Positions 39,457-50,912 are shown, numbered from the stretch's first letter. The stretch: 64,000 nucleotides of DNA from an uncultured Gemmatimonadaceae bacterium (GCA_963790305.1 CAWBOC010000007.1:128001-192000), one strand, 5' to 3'. Translations and numbers: made by a program. The notes: generated by a model from the letters alone, not told the origin.

Positions 39457-39852
39457 ATGAGAGTCCGGAGCTACCAAGATCTCGTGGTTTGGCAAAGAGC
39501 CGTCGATTTTGTCGCCGAGATTTACCGCATCAGCGCCAGATTTCCGCGTGAAGAGCAGTTCGGACTCACCGCGCAGGTGCGCAGGGCCAGCGTGTCCGTC
39601 TCCGCCAACATTGCAGAAGGCTCCGGTCGGGCAACGAGCCGCGATCTCTTGAACTTCCTAAGCCACGCCCGAGGCTCCTTGAAAGAGGCGGAGTCGATGG
39701 TGTTCGTTGCCCAACGCCTTGGGTTTGTGAGCGCTGCAGATTGCACCGAAGCCTTGCGCCTCGCCGACGAAACGAGCCGCATGCTAGCTCGACTGCGAGT
39801 CGGTATTGCGAGGCGCACTCCCCACTCCCCACTCCGCACTCCCCACTGGTGA
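39457..39852 (+). CDS. Four helix bundle protein (23S rRNA intervening-sequence protein / bAvd-like family)
   Basis: SYQDLVVWQRA, FPREEQFGLTAQVRRASVSVSANIAEG, ARGSLKE. Confidence 0.93.
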   Translation: MRVRSYQDLVVWQRAVDFVAEIYRISARFPREEQFGLTAQVRRASVSVSANIAEGSGRATSRDLLNFLSHARGSLKEAESMVFVAQRLGFVSAADCTEALRLADETSRMLARLRVGIARRTPHSPLRTPHW

Positions 39853-43858: not shown

Positions 43859-46489
43859 TTAGCCCGCCGACGAGGACGCCGGCCGCCTCGCCAACAGGGC
43901 CTGGAACCGCGGATCCCCCCGGAGCGGCGCCCAGGTCGGATCCACTCGCAGGTAAGCGGGCGTGTAGATCGACGGTGTCGCCAGCAGCTCGCCGAGCCAC
44001 GCCAGCGCCGCGTCGCGCTCGCCGGCCACGACCGCGGCCTCGGCCGCGAAGAACAGGATGTCCGGGAGGTTCCGTGAGACGCCGCCGCCGGCGAGCCGCC
44101 GCTCCGTCGCGATCGCGCGCCGCGCCAGGTCCAGGGCGGCCTTTCCGCGGCCGCGGAAGGCCTCGGCCGAGGCGAGGCCGCTCATCAGACGCGTGTCGTC
44201 CGGCACGTCCCGCAGCTCGAGTCGCCTCAGCCGCTGCGCAGAGTCCGCCCATTGGCGCATGCGCGCCGAGTCGCCCTCGAGGTAGTAGTGCCTTGCGCGC
44301 ACGAGCGCCATCCCGCTCGCACCGTCCGGGAACGCCTCGGGTCCGAGCGCCAGCAGCCGACGTAGGTCGGCGGCGGCGAGCACCCAGCTGACCGCGTTGC
44401 TCCCGAGGTCTCCCAGCACCTGGTCGGCCGGCAGGTCGCGCATCGCCTGCTCGGCGACGCGCCGGGCGGCCGCGGTGTCGCCCGCGGCGAGCTCGAAGCC
44501 GACGCGCGGGGCGGCCGCGCGGACGGCCGGCGACATGGTCCATGCCTGGCTCGCCAGCTCTCTCGCCTCCGAGATCCGGCCGAGCGCGCCGAGCACGTCG
44601 GCCAGCGCGCGCGACGGGAGCCGGGGGTCGAGCCGCCTCGCCTTGTCGAAGTACGGCAGCGCCTCCTCCAGGCGCCCGACATCGAACAGCGCAACGGCGA
44701 AGCTGGCGTTGGTCAACGCGTCGTTCGGGTTCGCGACCACCGCCCGCCGCAGCTCGCCGAGCGCTCGCACCTTGTCGCGCTCCACGAGGCGCAGGTACAG
44801 ACCGTTGGCCTCGGCGCCGGTCCCCCCAGCGGGATCGAGCGCGAGGGTCCGCAGCGCCGCCGTGCGCGCTCGCTCCGCCAGCACCCGCGTCGGGACACCG
44901 TTCGCGTACGCGAGCACAAGCGCGCTCGCGAGCCCGCCCCACGCTTCCACCATCGTGCTGTCGCGCGCGACGGCGGCCTCGTAGAGCGGGACGGCCGCAA
45001 GGTTGGAGGCGGCGTCGCTTCGCGCGCCCCAGTCCACCCGCGCCTGAGCCTTCAGGTACAGGTCATAGGCCGCCGGGTCGCGCACCGTGACCTCCGTCGC
45101 GCGCGACCGACTCTCCGCCGACGCCGGCAGCTCCATGGCGGAGACGACCCGACCTGCGATCTCTGACTGCATTCCGACGACGTCTCGGAACTCCGCCTCG
45201 AAGGGGGCCTGCCAGCGGCTCTGCGCGCGTCCATCGGCCCTCACCTCCACCAGCTCCGGGCGGACCACGACGCGCCGCTCGATGCCGCTCCCCAGCACGC
45301 GCACAGTGCCGGTGAGCAGATAGCGGACGCCCAGCTCCTCCGCGATCTCGGCCGGCGAGCTGCCGCCCCCCGCGTACCGGTTCGAGCTCGCGCGCGCGAT
45401 TACCATCAGCTCGCGCACGCGTGTGAGCCGGCCCCGGATTTCGTCGGTGATCCCGTCCGTCACGTACGCGTCGGCGCTGTCGCCCTGGTGCTCGAACGGA
45501 AGCACGGCGAGCCCGGGCGTCGCGTCCGCAGCGGGGGCGGGTGCACGGTTGGCGAGGTAGCCACCGAGCCCTACCAGCCCGGCGAGCATGGCGACTGCCG
45601 CGCCCGCGAGCCGCCGGCGCGGCGCCGCGCGCCCGCCCGACGGAATGGCATCGAGCGCCGCGAGCACCGCCGACGCATCTGCGGGACGCTCCGACGGGTC
45701 CTTGGCAAGGCACGCCATCACGAGCGCGCCGAGGCCCGGCGGGAGCCCAGGCTTCCGCTCGTCCAGCGGCGCCGGCGTCTCCGCCACCTGGGCTGCGACG
45801 AGCTGGCGCTGGGTCTTCTTCTCGCCGAACGGATGCGCGCCGGCGAGCAGCTCGTACGCCACCATCCCCCAGGCGTACAGGTCGGCGCGGTGGTTAGTGT
45901 GGTCGCCGACTGCCTGCTCCGGAGCCATGTACGCGGGGGTGCCGAGCGACGTGCCGACCAACGTGAGCGCCGCCGTGCCCGCGTCGGCGCGGGCGACGCT
46001 CATAGCCTTGGCGATCCCGAAATCGGCGACCACGGCGATGCGCCCGGCGAGGAGCACATTCTCCGGCTTGATGTCGCGGTGAACGACTCCGTGTGCGTGT
46101 GCGTACTCGAGCGCCTCCGCTACGTCGCGCAGAACGCGCAGCGCCTCGTCCAGAGGGAGCCGGGCCCGCTCCATCCGAGCCCGCAACGACTCCCCCGTGA
46201 CGAACGGCATGGTGTAGTACGGGAGCCCGTCGTCCGTCTGCGCCGCAGTGAGCACGGGGACGATGTGCGGGTGCTGCAGCGCGGCGGCCAGGCGGATCTC
46301 GCGCGTGAAGCGCTCGGCGCTCATCCCCTCGGCGGTCTCCGGGGAGAGCACCTTCACCACGACCTGGCGGCCGAGTGCCGGGTCGGTGGCGACGAACACG
46401 CGCGCCATGCCGCCGCCGCCTAGCTCGCGCTCGAGCGTGTAGGCGGCGCCCAGCGAGGACTGGAGCCGGTCGCGGAGCTGGTCGGGCAC
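43859..46489 (-). CDS. Ser/Thr protein kinase with TM, TolB-like and TPR regions
   Basis: GGGGMARV, VVVK, HRDIKPEN, DFG, GTPAYMAPE; LAVLPF; LRGDPRF. Confidence 0.93.
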   Translation of the reverse strand: MPDQLRDRLQSSLGAAYTLERELGGGGMARVFVATDPALGRQVVVKVLSPETAEGMSAERFTREIRLAAALQHPHIVPVLTAAQTDDGLPYYTMPFVTGESLRARMERARLPLDEALRVLRDVAEALEYAHAHGVVHRDIKPENVLLAGRIAVVADFGIAKAMSVARADAGTAALTLVGTSLGTPAYMAPEQAVGDHTNHRADLYAWGMVAYELLAGAHPFGEKKTQRQLVAAQVAETPAPLDERKPGLPPGLGALVMACLAKDPSERPADASAVLAALDAIPSGGRAAPRRRLAGAAVAMLAGLVGLGGYLANRAPAPAADATPGLAVLPFEHQGDSADAYVTDGITDEIRGRLTRVRELMVIARASSNRYAGGGSSPAEIAEELGVRYLLTGTVRVLGSGIERRVVVRPELVEVRADGRAQSRWQAPFEAEFRDVVGMQSEIAGRVVSAMELPASAESRSRATEVTVRDPAAYDLYLKAQARVDWGARSDAASNLAAVPLYEAAVARDSTMVEAWGGLASALVLAYANGVPTRVLAERARTAALRTLALDPAGGTGAEANGLYLRLVERDKVRALGELRRAVVANPNDALTNASFAVALFDVGRLEEALPYFDKARRLDPRLPSRALADVLGALGRISEARELASQAWTMSPAVRAAAPRVGFELAAGDTAAARRVAEQAMRDLPADQVLGDLGSNAVSWVLAAADLRRLLALGPEAFPDGASGMALVRARHYYLEGDSARMRQWADSAQRLRRLELRDVPDDTRLMSGLASAEAFRGRGKAALDLARRAIATERRLAGGGVSRNLPDILFFAAEAAVVAGERDAALAWLGELLATPSIYTPAYLRVDPTWAPLRGDPRFQALLARRPASSSAG

Positions 46490-46553
46490 GGGATCCTGGC
46501 GCGAGGTGACGAGCCGCGAATAATTAGGCTTCGCACTACAATCCGCAAACGAA

Positions 46554-46585
46554 TGGCCCCGCGTCACCGAAGTAACGCGGGGCCA
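46554..46585 (-). terminator. Hairpin downstream of tRNA-Gln
   Basis: tggccccgcgt-caccgaagta-acgcggggcca. Confidence 0.65.
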
Positions 46586-46597
46586 AGCGCTTGAAAG

Positions 46598-46670
46598 TTG
46601 CCCCTCCTGGGCTCGAACCAGGACTCTCCTGATCCAGAGTCAGGCGTGTTGCCAGTTACACCAAGGGGCA
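46598..46670 (-). tRNA. tRNA-Gln(CTG), CCA not encoded
   Basis: UGCCCCU/AGGGGCA acceptor stem, anticodon arm ctgactCTGgatcag, GGTTCGAG T-loop. Confidence 0.95.
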
Positions 46671-46767: not shown

Positions 46768-48077
46768 GTGTTTTCGAGTCGCCCTGCGGCGTTGTCGCTG
46801 CTTCTTCTGCCCTTCGCGGTCGCGTGTCGTGAGGCTGTTCCTGCCCTGGGAACTACCCCAGATCGCGCGACTCGCCACGCCTCGATCATGCTCAACGCGC
46901 TCGCCGATCGCTTTGGTGTCGTCGAGCTCTCACCCGAAATCGCGACGACGCGCCCGCGGCTCGCCCGGTACAGCACCACTCCGTCGCGACTCGTCGACGA
47001 CACGGAGTCTATGGACGAGTCGTGGCGAGGATGATCGCACGATCGAGATCGCCGGTGCGCGACGCGCCGGGCGTTACACCCTCTTTCATCATCCAGGCGC
47101 GCCCCCGCCTCGCGATCCAGGGGAGGCGCGACATGTCATGCGTCTCCAGATCCTCGGCGACGACGAGTTCCGGTGGACGTCCGTCGACGAGGTCGCACTC
47201 GGAGCGATCACCATCGCCGACCTCGACCGCGCACTGACCGCCGATTCTTCTCGTCGCCGAGCAAGGTGATCCAGCAGCCGCGCGCGTCGCGACACGCATC
47301 GCTTTTCCACGAGCATCGGCGTCGTTGTCGCGCATGTTCGTCATCGATTCCGTTCGCGCGTCGCGCAGCGCCGATGGTGCGACATCGGTGGTTCTCGGTC
47401 TCGGGCTGAGGCCAGGTCAGGCGGAGCGGCACTTCCAGTCGCTGGGTCCCTACGCGCGCAAGTATTGGGTGCCGATTCGTTGGCGCATGAGTGTCGAGGA
47501 CTCACTCGGAACACGCTGGGGTGAGTTCACCAAGCGCGATTCCTCGATCGTTCTCCGGTTTCGAGTGCACGAGGGATCGCTGGCACCCTTTGGCGCGCCG
47601 CCGCGTCGCGTCGGGGCGCACCTGCGCCTAACTGCTGACGCGTCGGTGAAGGTGGGACCGTTCCGCGTGGGCGTACGCAATCTGGACGGGCGTGTGCTGC
47701 GGTTGGCCGACCGCGATCACCTCGCGATGGCTCTTCGCTTTTCCACCGAACCGGAATGGCAGCTGCCGCCACTAGTCGCACGACTGCTGCGCTCCCCGCT
47801 CCGCCGTCCCTTCGAGGGCGGGGGCGCCCTCATGCGCTATGGCGTGCGCACCGACGCGCAGCCGGACGATACGGTATCGACGGTATGGCGCGACATCAAT
47901 GTCACCGTGCGCGAAAGCGGAATCCTCCGCTTTTTCGGTCGCCTCGGCGGTACCGCACTCGGCGATTTTCGACAAGGCGCCGAGAAGGAGGCGGAGCAGT
48001 TGTGGGAGGAGTCGCTGCGAGGCCTGGCGGCCGACGTGGCCGGTCGCGAATGCGGAATTCGGAATGCGGAATGTTGA
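46768..48077 (+). CDS. Hypothetical lipoprotein, multiply frameshifted (about 47000-47330)
   Basis: Lipobox AVAC; protein-like pieces in successive frames; last codons run into a repeat. Confidence 0.55.
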
Positions 48078-48107
48078 TTCAAACACTTCCGGATTCCGCA
48101 TTCCGCC
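48046..48107. repeat. CGGAATG heptamer inverted-repeat element
   Basis: gcgaatgcggaattcggaatgcggaatg...ttccggattccgcattccgc. Confidence 0.85.
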
Positions 48108-48123
48108 TTCGACATGAGACCCG

Positions 48124-48157
48124 AAAAAGAAAACGCCGCGGATGTTGATCCGCGGCG
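48124..48157 (-). terminator. Rho-independent terminator of the tRNA-Ala transcript
   Basis: Minus strand CGCCGCGGAT-CAAC-ATCCGCGGCG followed by TTTTCTTTTT. Confidence 0.9.
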
Positions 48158-48180
48158 ATTGCCTCATTCGATCGAGCGAG

Positions 48181-48348
48181 GGGTATGCCTCGCGCGCCGT
48201 CATTGGAACTCTGCGTCCTACCGAGCGGCGGCGGGCAACCCATTCAAAGTGGGTTGACCGAATCTCTTCATTGGAACTCTACGTCCTACCGAAAGAGACC
48301 GGCAACCGAGTCGAGTGTCGGCGCAACCACTAATTCAGGTTGCATGCC
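48181..48348 (-). ncRNA. Putative structured RNA: two homologous hairpins plus a third GCAACC/GGTTGC hairpin in the tRNA-Ala trailer
   Basis: 25-nt repeat at 48200-48224 and 48268-48292 (24/25 identical) enclosed by different but pairing stems. Confidence 0.65.
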
Positions 48349-48354
48349 AGAAAA

Positions 48355-48427
48355 TGGAGCTGAGGGGGCTCGAACCCCTGACCTCCTGGGTGCGATCCAG
48401 GCGCTCTCCCAGCTGAGCTACAGCCCC
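48355..48427 (-). tRNA. tRNA-Ala(CGC), CCA not encoded
   Basis: GGGGCUG/CAGCUCC acceptor stem with G3-U70, anticodon arm ctggatCGCacccag, GGTTCGAG. Confidence 0.95.
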
Positions 48428-48526
48428 GCGCACGCGGGTACGGGAGAACCCACTAGATCCCTCGCACCCGGATCACCTGAAGACAACAGCCCCGCTACGT
48501 TCGCGGGGCCGCGTTCAAGCTGTTGG

Positions 48527-48555
48527 ATGATAACAGCTTTCGCGGGTCGCGTCAA
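48527..48555 (-). promoter_or_regulatory. sigma70 promoter for the tRNA-Ala transcript
   Basis: TTGACG (48555-48550)-17-TATCAT (48532-48527). Confidence 0.8.
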
Positions 48556-48888
48556 GCGAATGCCCTGCCTTCTCGATGGTCCGGGCCATCACCCATCACG
48601 CGTGATTGTACCAGCGATTCACGCGCGCTGTTCCGACGATTTTCAATACCTGCAAAGAAGAGCGATGGGGGGCGATCCCACGACTTTCGTCGTTTCCCAA
48701 ACTGCCCACACTCCCCCCGGAGTTGTCCCCCCACCGCTTCACCTGCCGCGCGCATGCAACGCGCGCGTGGGCGGAAAAGGCCCTGCTACGCACTAGACCG
48801 ATCAGCACCGTGTGGGGCAACATCTGGCGCGATCCAGATCACGATTCGGTGCTTGCGCGCACCGAACGGCGACCGTAGCGTCCGCGTC

Positions 48889-49851
48889 GTGTTCGCCGAC
48901 GTGACCGCCGACGATGTGCGACGCGCAGCGGAGCGCCTTCGCGACGTGGTTCGGCGAACCGAGCTCCGTCGCGCCCTCCGCCTGTCCGATCGCGTTCAGC
49001 GCGAGGTGTGGCTCAAGCTCGAGAACGCGCAGCTCACCGGCTCCTTCAAGATGCGCGGCGCATACAACGCCATCGCCTCGCTTCCACAATCCGAGAGAGG
49101 ACGCGGTGTGGTCACCGCGAGCGCGGGTAACCACGGCCGCGGCGTTGCGCTCGCCGCGCAACGATTCGGCATTCGCGCGTTGATCTTCGTGCCGCGAACG
49201 GCGCCGCGCGTGAAGATCGAAGGGATGCGAGAGTGCGGCGCGTCGATCGACGCGGACTCCGCGCATTACGATGAAGCGCACGCGCGCTCGGTGGCGTTCG
49301 CGAATGAGCACCACGCCGTCTACCTCGATCCATGCGTCGGCACCCCGCTCGTTGCCGGCCACGGTACGGTCGCTCTCGAGATCATCGATCAGCTGCCGAA
49401 CGTCGGCTCGGTCATCCTCCCAGTGGGCGGCGGTGGCCTGCTCGGGGGAATGGGCGCATTTCTCCGGGCGACGAAGCCCGAGGTGCGCATCGTCGGTGCG
49501 CAGAGCGTGAACACGAGCGCGATGGCGCGCTCGCTCGAAGCAGGACATCTCGTCGATGTCCCGGTGATGCCAACCCTCGCCGATGGCCTCGCGGGCGCGA
49601 TCGATGCGCACGGGCTCGACGTCGGCCGACACGCACTCGATAGAATGGTGGTGGTCGAGGAAGCAGACGTTGCCCGCGCGATCGCCTTTCTCGCCCGGGA
49701 AGAGGACGTCACGGCCGAGGGGTCCGGAGCGGTTGGAGTGGCTGCGCTACTTGCGGGGTTGGCGGACGACGTGGTCGATCCCGTCGTCGTGGTAATCAGC
49801 GGCGGGAACATCGACTCGGACGTCTTCGAGCGTGTCAAAGGGCAGCGGTAG
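48889..49851 (+). CDS. PLP-dependent threonine/serine dehydratase family
   Basis: KLENAQLTGSFKMRGA, SAGNHG, VGGGGL, SGGN. Confidence 0.92.
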   Translation: MFADVTADDVRRAAERLRDVVRRTELRRALRLSDRVQREVWLKLENAQLTGSFKMRGAYNAIASLPQSERGRGVVTASAGNHGRGVALAAQRFGIRALIFVPRTAPRVKIEGMRECGASIDADSAHYDEAHARSVAFANEHHAVYLDPCVGTPLVAGHGTVALEIIDQLPNVGSVILPVGGGGLLGGMGAFLRATKPEVRIVGAQSVNTSAMARSLEAGHLVDVPVMPTLADGLAGAIDAHGLDVGRHALDRMVVVEEADVARAIAFLAREEDVTAEGSGAVGVAALLAGLADDVVDPVVVVISGGNIDSDVFERVKGQR

Positions 49852-49930
49852 CCGAGGTCGTCAAGGTCGTCGAGGAGATCAAGGTGACTTCGCCTCGATC
49901 ACCTGGACCACTTCGACGACCTCGACTACC
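49847..49930. repeat. 9-mer (GTCGAGGTV-type) tandem inverted-repeat element
   Basis: ggtagccgaggtcgtcaaggtcgtcgaggagatcaagg...cctcgatcacctggaccacttcgacgacctcgactacc. Confidence 0.8.
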
Positions 49931-49946
49931 CCTGCATATTCCCTCC

Positions 49947-50912
49947 ATGTCCCTGAGCCTCCGTTTCCTCGGTACCTCCGCCGCTCGCCCCACCGTCGAG
50001 CGGAACGTCAGCTCGCTCGCGCTCATTCGCGAGGGAGAGACGATGCTGTTCGACTGCGGCGAGGGAACGCAGCGGCAGATGATGCGCTACGGCATCTCGT
50101 TCGTGCTGGAGGACATTTTTTTCACCCACCTGCACGCCGATCACGTCATCGGCGTCATTGGCCTCATGCGGACGATGGCCTTGCAGGGACGCACGGAAGC
50201 GCTTCGGCTGTGGGGACCCCGCGGATCGAGCCGCCATTTGCGCCGCGCTTCGGAGTTCGGCGTCGAGCGCGTGGGCTTCCGCGTCGACGTGATGGAGGTG
50301 CAGGCCGAAGAGACCATCAAGCGAAACGGATACGTGATCGAGCCGTTCGCCGCCGAGCACGGCGGGGGACCGTCGTTAGGTTTCGCGCTGGTGGAGGAGG
50401 AGCGTCGCGGACGGTTCAATCCCGATCTCGCTCGCGAGCTCGGCGTTCCCGAGGGCCCGATGTGGGGCAAGCTGCATTGCGGGGAAGCGGTGACGCTCGC
50501 CGACGGGCGCATCGTGGATCCCGTAGTCCTCGTCGGTCCGCGGCGGTCGGGGCGGAAGGTCGTGATCTCGGGCGATACCCGTCCCGCGCAGACCGTGATC
50601 GACGCGTCGCGGGGGGCCGACGTGCTGGTGCACGAAGCCACGTTCGCCGATGAGGAGGCCGATCGCGCCCGGGAGACCGGCCATTCGACGGCGCGCGAGG
50701 CCGCGACCGTGGCGGCGCGGGCAGGGGTTCGCCAGCTCGTGCTAACCCACTTTTCCGCCCGCTACTCGCGCGACGCCTCGGATCTGCTGAAGGAGGCCCG
50801 CGAGGAATTCGCCTTTACAACTCTGGCTCGCGACGGGATGGAAGTCGAAGTCCCGTATGAGGATGAAGGAGCTGCCGGGGTGATCGACCAAGAGGATGTC
50901 GAGAGGGGGTGA
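49947..50912 (+). CDS. rnz: Ribonuclease Z
   Basis: FLGTSAARP, FDCGEGTQ, THLHADH, GVPEGP exosite, SGDT, HEAT, THFSARY. Confidence 0.95.
   Translation: MSLSLRFLGTSAARPTVERNVSSLALIREGETMLFDCGEGTQRQMMRYGISFVLEDIFFTHLHADHVIGVIGLMRTMALQGRTEALRLWGPRGSSRHLRRASEFGVERVGFRVDVMEVQAEETIKRNGYVIEPFAAEHGGGPSLGFALVEEERRGRFNPDLARELGVPEGPMWGKLHCGEAVTLADGRIVDPVVLVGPRRSGRKVVISGDTRPAQTVIDASRGADVLVHEATFADEEADRARETGHSTAREAATVAARAGVRQLVLTHFSARYSRDASDLLKEAREEFAFTTLARDGMEVEVPYEDEGAAGVIDQEDVERG

Follow-up and report, generated by a model that had tools for sequence, protein, structure and literature searches.

A hairpin of about 60 nucleotides (nt), encoded in the 3′ trailer of the tRNA-Ala(CGC) gene, is a real and sharply defined RNA motif of the bacterial family Gemmatimonadaceae, and apparently an undescribed one. 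It was noticed at positions 48124-48555, on the minus strand, of a 64,000-nt stretch of DNA (the window) from an uncultured Gemmatimonadaceae bacterium (GCA_963790305.1 CAWBOC010000007.1:128001-192000), whose genome measures 4.31 Mb in 13 contigs and is 94% complete. The anatomy of the locus, the conservation of the hairpin, the covariation in its stems and its linkage to the tRNA are observed directly. With moderate confidence, we interpret the element as a family-specific structured RNA that would be freed from the tRNA precursor by RNase Z and whose apical module would be a docking site, most likely for a protein.

In the window the motif is present as a tandem pair within one short unit, which has the following features:

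48527-48555, minus strand: sigma-70-like promoter, TTGACG-17-TATCAT with TG before the -10 element, 10 of 12 matches
48428-48526, minus strand: 5′ leader of about 100 nt, between the promoter and tRNA-Ala(CGC)
48489-48510, minus strand: conserved leader hairpin, GGCCCCGC...GCGGGGC
48456-48474, minus strand: leader hairpin, CCGG-GUGCGA-GG
48355-48427, minus strand: tRNA-Ala(CGC), 63.3 bits, single copy in the genome, TTTT after the discriminator, no encoded CCA
48319-48349, minus strand: hairpin GCAACC/GGUUGC, from folding, between the tRNA and hairpin copy 1
48252-48307, minus strand: hairpin copy 1, tRNA-proximal, covariance model 70.6 bits, E 7.6e-14
48182-48241, minus strand: hairpin copy 2, terminator-proximal, covariance model 81.8 bits, E 1.0e-16
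48124-48157, minus strand: intrinsic terminator, 10-pair stem (48157-48134), 4-nt loop, T-rich tail
47325-48077, plus strand: convergent gene of 250 amino acids, after the hairpin terminator

The promoter is the sole promoter-like site in 47900-48900 (shuffle mean 0.2), and by eye TTGAC-type hexamers are found at comparable upstream distances in most related loci. The first-pass annotation, made from this DNA alone, had placed the promoter, tRNA-Ala(CGC), trailer and terminator where they were found here and had read them as one bounded transcript; the order of promoter, tRNA, hairpins and terminator indeed makes the hairpins co-transcribed with tRNA-Ala(CGC) by design. It had also pointed out two copies of a 25-nt core. 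Allowing up to 3 mismatches, a search returned exactly these two sites in the 64 kb, 48200-48224 and 48268-48292, both on the minus strand, with none expected by chance (100 shuffles). At the same tolerance and on both strands, the host genome as a whole holds two copies of the core, both at this locus. The flanks of the core pair as annotated, UCUCU with AGAGA and CGCCG with CGGCG, and a one-base bulge lies beside the core in both copies.

Copy 2 has the form of the family-wide consensus. From base to tip it consists of three outer pairs, a 1-nt bulge, three pairs, a 1-nt bulge, five pairs, a 1-nt bulge and the apical module, which lies at 48201-48223. Copy 1 is a lineage-level duplicate, the tandem pair being a lineage-level duplication: its stems depart from the family consensus and its apical module (48269-48291) is identical to it. 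Folding of the 231-nt trailer gives these two hairpins, the GCAACC/GGUUGC hairpin and the terminator, with an energy of -96.2 kcal/mol (z = -4.13) that none of 200 shuffles matched. The third hairpin of the earlier description is thereby recovered, with the refinement that it is genus-specific, being present only in loci of the window's own genus.

Across the family the hairpin is a rod of about 60 nt, or about 75 nt if one more outer stem, which is variable, is counted. Following this outer stem, from the base towards the tip, are a 3-pair stem, a 1-nt bulge in the 3′ strand, a second 3-pair stem and a second 1-nt bulge in the 3′ strand; the upper part is made of a 5-pair stem, a 1-nt bulge in the 5′ strand and then the apical module. 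The bulges are fixed in position and variable in base. Pairing was evaluated in two alignments, A1, which is ungapped and holds 37 of 43 instances after six near-identical rows from the window's genus were dropped, and A2, which holds 107 distinct rows from loci chosen by an exact 22-mer. Standard pairs occupy 96.6% of cells in A1 and 98.9% in A2, as against 31-39% and 23-45%, respectively, when the 3′ partners are slid by 1-3 columns. Compensatory change is present at 12 of the 19 pairs in A1 and at 12 of the 19 in A2, and 0 of 500 shuffles reached the observed value in either alignment; because A2 was fitted to the covariance model, its counts lean towards structure. RNAalifold, run unaided, drew 17 pairs, all within the 19 and 11 of them compensatory, and the column pairs with the highest mutual information are predicted pairs. 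Among 189 distinct instances, 187 fold with the closing pair, with a median of 17 enclosing pairs and a 62-nt span. The compensatory changes, the G-U intermediates and two invariant G-U pairs together indicate an RNA on the minus strand. This bears out the proposal of a structured RNA on that strand, as well as the remark that the G-U pairs of the core, two in number, form on the minus strand only.

The apical module comprises 23 near-invariant nt and begins after a covarying U-A pair (also found as C-G, U-G and A-U). As drawn, it runs through C-G, G-U, G.A, U-A and A.C, and then through a 4-pair helix (G-C, G-U, A-U, C-G) into the loop. In 112 rows all bases are constant from the C-G to its partner, the loop excepted. 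The five loop positions read G (111 rows); G, T or C (48, 44 and 20 rows, never A); A (112 rows); G or T (107 and 5 rows); and A (112 rows). Only positions 2 and 4 thus vary freely, in a pattern G-N-A-N-A with positions 1, 3 and 5 fixed, and the G-N-R-N-A type assigned to this loop at first sight fits. The weakest model matches contain rare changes, namely C at loop position 4 and single cases of A at position 1 and of G at position 5. No covariation was found between the variable loop base and any other column. One relative (locus L203, 236-303) stands alone among the genomes seen in having the G-U closing wobble replaced, on both sides at once, by C and A, which suggests that a wobble-like geometry, not a Watson-Crick one, is selected there. 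The independent duplicates, whose stems are unrelated, retain the module unaltered. The adjoining tRNA is more variable than the module, with 54 of its 73 columns invariant, 17 distinct sequences and variation in its stems.

The element is confined to the family Gemmatimonadaceae. All counts below refer to sampled genomes, absence meaning that the element was not found in those searched, and the family genomes are kin, so that the counts are not independent. A search with the 23-mer, allowing up to 3 mismatches, found it in 33 of 36 other Gemmatimonadaceae genomes and in none of the 24 searched from two sister families. Of the 49 sites returned, 39 are without mismatch and 7 differ at the last base only; the remaining 3, with 2-3 mismatches, are all in one genome, and one of them, on another contig, may be a chance match. 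A covariance model built from 37 hairpins and run in Infernal with stricter filters matched 57 of 62 family genomes versus 0 of 88 from the two sister families, and in a second sample 28 of 31 family genomes versus 0 of 119 genomes from 11 other families of the phylum. These searches, with the core and with the model, uphold the conservation of core and stems in relatives, extending it to nearly all sampled Gemmatimonadaceae. An exact 22-mer scan with one genome per species gave at least 119 stretches. Among the matches listed, 116 carry titles naming Gemmatimonadaceae, Gemmatimonadales, Gemmatimonadota/-etes, Gemmatimonas or Roseisolibacter, and three contigs of metagenome-assembled genomes (MAGs) are titled otherwise ("bacterium", Acidobacteriota and Beijerinckia sp.), with the same tRNA-Ala(CGC) context. 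Records with the hairpin include that of an isolate, titled Roseisolibacter sp. H3M3-2, and those of MAGs under the title Gemmatimonas. No match was obtained in viral contigs. The first-pass annotation had regarded the RNA as bivalent, and this trait could not be kept as a defining one: two matches to the covariance model are present in 10 of the 58 genomes with a match and two copies in 18 of the 119 listed 22-mer loci, the rest having one.

The linkage of the hairpin to tRNA-Ala(CGC), which the annotation had asked to be examined as synteny, is nearly complete. In three sets of loci the tRNA precedes the hairpin on the same strand: in 30 of 30, in 55 of 55 (at a distance of 18-171 nt) and in 112 of the 119 listed 22-mer loci. 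Among the seven listed loci where it was not seen, six have less than 185 nt upstream before the contig ends and one has 299 nt with no tRNA. Five family genomes had no match to the hairpin, and no close tRNA-Ala(CGC) was detected in them either at E <= 1e-20; in these genomes the whole locus may have been lost together, or may be missing from the assembly. A CCA is encoded after tRNA-Ala(CGC) in 0 of 55 related loci. A simple test for a T-run in the 200 nt beyond the last hairpin was positive in 38 of 55 related loci, and weaker T tracts can be seen by eye elsewhere.

A comparison with the sister families may provide some clues regarding the origin of the element. In three of their loci (L183-L185) tRNA-Gln(CTG) is found 7-71 nt after tRNA-Ala(CGC), and a fourth locus is cut by the contig end. 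In Gemmatimonadaceae the hairpin and terminator stand between tRNA-Ala and tRNA-Gln, the latter being 325 to about 1,530 nt further on. In the window tRNA-Gln(CTG) is at 46597-46670 on the minus strand, about 1.5 kb downstream of tRNA-Ala(CGC); among the 55 related loci it was located in 5, at 325-1430 nt, and not within the other 50. Given the adjacency of the two tRNAs in the sister families, the hairpin looks like an innovation inside an ancestral Ala-Gln operon, the tRNA pair apparently having been split by the hairpin, the terminator and, in many genomes, the convergent gene.

The leader also resembles that of a stable RNA. In addition to its two hairpins it holds a GCUGUU-type stretch, and of 26 related leaders most show the same elements on inspection by eye. 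GCTGTT... and GTGCGAGG recur in the leader of the rRNA operon on contig 6 (about 136480-136530), and the leader of the second rRNA operon, on contig 1, has GCTGTT... and GTGCGA. The strings in common with the rRNA operon leaders suggest that the locus is a stable-RNA transcription unit, and the leader is probably of the antitermination type. By eye, the succession of GCTGTT... and GTGCGA(GG) common to tRNA-Ala and both rRNA operons recalls antitermination signals of the boxA/boxC type.

How such an element might work can be sketched from its architecture. We would give an even chance to a structured RNA that acts in trans and presents its apical module as a specific docking surface, with a protein as the likeliest binder. 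It would be transcribed from a strong promoter, behind an rRNA-operon-like leader, and would form the 3′ trailer of the genome's one tRNA-Ala(CGC) gene. Precursors that lack CCA are cleaved by RNase Z after the discriminator. Since no CCA is encoded and an RNase Z gene is present in the genome, 1.4 kb away (49884-50912, plus strand; TIGR02651 at 324.5 bits, the cut-off being 292.95), cleavage at that point should free the trailer, composed of hairpin and terminator, as a separate small RNA. In this RNA the stems would need pairing only and the module would be the working surface, docking by sequence and shape onto a conserved partner, in the likeliest case a protein. By binding or titrating that partner the RNA would act in trans, and it would be produced in step with the tRNA. 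Several features are consistent with docking. The stems drift but still pair, while the sequence of the tip is frozen, two G-U wobbles and the non-canonical pairs included; loops of this pattern are known to offer their bases to proteins; the bulges hold their places but not their identities; in several lineages, independent duplications have preserved precisely the tip; and the promoter is a strong one of the stable-RNA kind.

A more specific version, which we consider doubtful, is a lineage-specific housekeeping RNA that acts on a universal machine or enzyme, such as the ribosome, a translation factor, RNA polymerase, or an enzyme that reads tRNA-Ala and would be addressed by mimicry of the G-U in the acceptor helix. 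It would explain why an element only one family old has a 23-nt tip more constant than the neighbouring tRNA, in independent duplicates as well, and, if true, would mean a new regulatory ribonucleoprotein dose-coupled to a tRNA gene.

A number of observations weigh against docking to a protein in trans, or at least temper it. Transcription, processing by RNase Z and stability are steps that we infer, and the existence and nature of a partner are likewise deduced. In the 94%-complete genome, searches for Hfq, CsrA, ProQ, Ro/TROVE and RRM_1 found none of them. The convergent gene was considered as a partner and set aside, as a search with a 26-homologue profile did not detect it in any of 5 good hairpin-bearing genomes; its absence from these five means that it is not an obligate partner. 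The loci behind the 112 rows were chosen by an exact 22-mer, so that the invariance of at least one copy per locus is partly by construction; fair tests of core invariance come from the secondary copies in the same loci and from the looser searches, where rare variants are found. Seven pairs inside the module, including the four under the loop, never vary, so that covariation neither supports nor refutes the module fold as drawn. The four pairs under the loop can form in the fold; a one-base shift of register would also be possible, and might produce a bulged-G-like turn. Finally, 23 near-invariant nt would equally fit a compact ligand-binding or catalytic fold. Six metatranscriptome runs share 0.23-0.40 of the words sampled from 48100-48560, words that may lie in the tRNA, and this is not counted as evidence.

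Among the other explanations, the hairpin could be a cis-acting element for maturation or stability of the tRNA-Ala precursor, guiding or blocking RNase III, RNase E or 3′ exonucleases, or aiding folding, with no life after cleavage. It is always in the transcript of the tRNA, it forms a long, bulged, double-stranded rod, and the family genomes that lack it also lack a detected tRNA-Ala(CGC). However, the tRNA-Ala(CGC) of the sister families does without it, with tRNA-Gln directly next; an entry site or barrier for nucleases would leave 23 near-invariant bases, loop included, unexplained, as it would the duplicates that keep exactly the module while their stems drift. We regard a cis role as rather unlikely. 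A sensor, either a small-molecule aptamer or an RNA-docking module, that controls the terminator and thereby read-through into tRNA-Gln or antisense to the convergent gene, would account for an invariant core, which aptamers likewise have, and rod-like hairpin aptamers exist. The terminator follows the last core by about 40-110 nt in 37 of 38 loci with a T-run, its 5′ arm repeats, by eye, the CGCCG of the hairpin 5′ strand and could compete for pairing, and the ancestral layout had tRNA-Gln downstream. Yet nothing co-oriented stands before the terminator and no co-oriented gene follows it, the next gene being convergent in 49 of 59 loci (a few genomes are counted twice); for the same reason the position does not suit a riboswitch, which lies in the 5′ leader of what it controls. 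As tRNA-Gln is located at 325-1430 nt in just 5 of 55 loci and the candidate alternative pairing is short and GC-rich, a sensor seems unlikely. Mimicry of a part of a tRNA, making the RNA a decoy or regulator of a tRNA-reading enzyme or toxin, draws on likenesses seen by eye after several comparisons with parts of tRNAs, and they come without statistical support. The 4-pair helix with G-U, followed by A, resembles the top of the tRNA-Ala acceptor stem; the 3′ strand of the module, GTTCCA, is one base from the tRNA-Ala 3′ end, GCTCCA, with G-U at the matching place; redrawn as 5 pairs and a 7-nt loop, the tip resembles an anticodon arm; and the element is tied to tRNA-Ala(CGC) both physically and evolutionarily. 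On the other hand, the hairpin has no free 3′ end, and the anticodon-arm drawing puts G at the place of U33 and a pairable C/G at 32-38, so that only purine 37 fits. An anticodon-arm mimic of tRNA-Leu was itself rejected, the host tRNA-Leu arms being dissimilar and U33 missing. Mimicry is in our view decidedly unlikely.

A base-pairing small RNA or sponge of the 3′-external-transcribed-spacer type is highly unlikely. The position in a tRNA 3′ trailer and a terminator hairpin with a U tail are reportedly shared with the E. coli case, but the conserved bases are buried in a helix with covarying flanks and the exposed loop holds the variable ones. No second genomic site was found on either strand at up to 3 mismatches to the core, and Hfq and ProQ are among the proteins not found in the host genome. 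A classical Hfq-dependent sponge is unlikely given the conserved bases inside the helix and the lack of a detected Hfq. A site acting at the level of DNA, for protein binding or integration, or a small open reading frame (ORF) starting from the invariant ATG in the core, appears extremely unlikely. In favour of an ORF, the ATG is invariant except for one instance (AAG, in one genome), a G at the variable loop position creates GGAG 7 nt upstream of it, and the variable base is a third codon position in one frame per strand. Against it, every other third position is invariant as well, and across 170 instances the ORFs from this ATG run to 1-84 codons (median 17.5) with nothing conserved past the stem, in agreement with the original judgement that no credible ORF lies here. 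As to a DNA site, the compensatory changes, the G-U intermediates and the two invariant G-U pairs indicate RNA of this strand, and the element is neither dispersed in the genome nor matched in viral contigs.

Comparison with known systems places the element in a small company. The 3′ external transcribed spacer (3′ETS) of leuZ in E. coli is reportedly a sponge derived from a tRNA trailer. It resembles the present case in being a functional RNA in a tRNA 3′ trailer that is made with the tRNA and ends at the operon terminator. It differs in that the leuZ RNA is single-stranded, pairs with small RNAs and depends on Hfq, whereas the Gemmatimonadaceae RNA is a closed hairpin with covarying stems, exposes its variable bases and has no detected Hfq. 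Murine gammaherpesvirus is said to have tRNA-like units joined to one or two stem-loops that are freed by tRNase Z. The parallel lies in a tRNA shape with one or two hairpins of about 60 nt behind it and an expected RNase Z cut. As differences, the viral hairpins enter the eukaryotic microRNA pathway, which is not implied for these bacteria, and the tRNA here is a true, single-copy, cellular one. The nut sites of lambdoid phages contain boxB, a hairpin with a G-N-R-N-A pentaloop, and such loops are known protein-docking sites. With boxB the hairpin has in common a loop of five bases, of which 1, 3 and 5 are fixed and 2 and 4 free, and a C-G closing pair; unlike boxB, it has no phage context, is followed by a terminator and a convergent gene and not by an operon for read-through, and has a conserved module far larger than the loop. 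The signal recognition particle (SRP, 4.5S) RNA is likewise a stable RNA with a bulged, rod-like hairpin and a conserved apical protein-binding domain, but the present hairpin is confined to one family and the host SRP RNA is encoded elsewhere. CsrB and RsmZ are protein-titrating RNAs with many hairpins that have GGA in their loops, and they need CsrA. By analogy, repeated hairpins with one conserved motif could sequester a protein, and the tandem copies of some lineages fit this; here, in contrast, there are one or two copies, GGA is inside the helix and no CsrA was found.

Several specific identities were excluded. In Rfam 15 at gathering thresholds, only two tRNAs pass in the 64-kb window. 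In a permissive search of 901 nt, with E up to 10, the trailer is touched only by tmRNA_permuted (14.6 bits against 47) and ncS54 (13.8 against 43), and both weak matches fall outside the hairpin cores. The impression that the element belongs to no known family is thus borne out at both settings, and literature searched by titles and the beginnings of abstracts mentioned nothing on it. The host SRP RNA is on contig 9 (39.6 bits) and has a different apical sequence. Y RNA/YrlA was dismissed because the genome has no TROVE match (control genomes matched) and the YrlA model, at 18.7 bits against 69, covers only the tRNA and leader. A dispersed repeat, such as a REP element or miniature transposon, does not agree with two copies at one locus and 1 or 2 per matched genome. 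A phage element or nut site was rejected on the 0 matches in viral contigs and on the position of the hairpin after a tRNA, directly before a terminator and a convergent gene. Mimicry of rRNA was considered at sequence level in the rRNA operon region of contig 6 (6.2 kb): the best local alignment is weak and partial, neither GTTCCAA nor CCAATG occurs there, and the only G.A.A pentaloop hairpin is unrelated. Likenesses to the D-loop region of tRNA-Glu, to a stretch of tRNA-Gln and to a T-loop, all seen by eye and without a statistic, were set aside.

Gemmatimonadota is an abundant, little-studied soil phylum whose small RNAs are essentially uncharted. The motif is well defined, with one locus per genome, a clear boundary and strong stem covariation, and its duplicates, having unrelated stems and the same tip, amount to a natural mutagenesis series. 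It adds to the few functional RNAs of bacteria in tRNA trailers one of a different type, a structured and probably protein-docking hairpin. Its partner, if found, could reveal a new RNA-binding protein or a new tie of a cellular process to tRNA output.

The convergent gene was found with a single-sequence query in 43 of 62 family genomes versus 0 of 88 sister-family genomes. It gave no Pfam or NCBIfam family, no atlas match at 0.9 or above and no Foldseek match in the PDB at E <= 0.001. The AlphaFold model (pLDDT 81.8) shows a beta-rich protein with a long helix at the C-terminus, and the conserved motifs include EP.W.LP, PLRRPF and VQESAI.RF. Overlapping its stop codon, at 48047-48115, is an inverted array of GGAATGC-type heptamers with 25-nt arms that are 88% complementary, which may be the terminator of this gene. 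Relatives within the genus have other heptamer arrays at the same place, for example CGAACTG repeats. The array drew weak matches to microRNA families in the permissive Rfam search.

Upstream of the tRNA-Ala unit and divergent from it are a threonine/serine dehydratase-like PLP enzyme (48943-49851, plus strand) and the RNase Z gene. On the other side, a serine/threonine protein kinase of 902 amino acids with TPR repeats (43859-46567, minus strand) adjoins tRNA-Gln. ARAGORN also called three odd "tRNAs" of 88-92 nt, two Val(gac) and one with a four-base anticodon, on contig 6 (about 391200-391291), contig 9 (about 1001949-1002036) and contig 13 (about 39756-39843), and these look like false positives.

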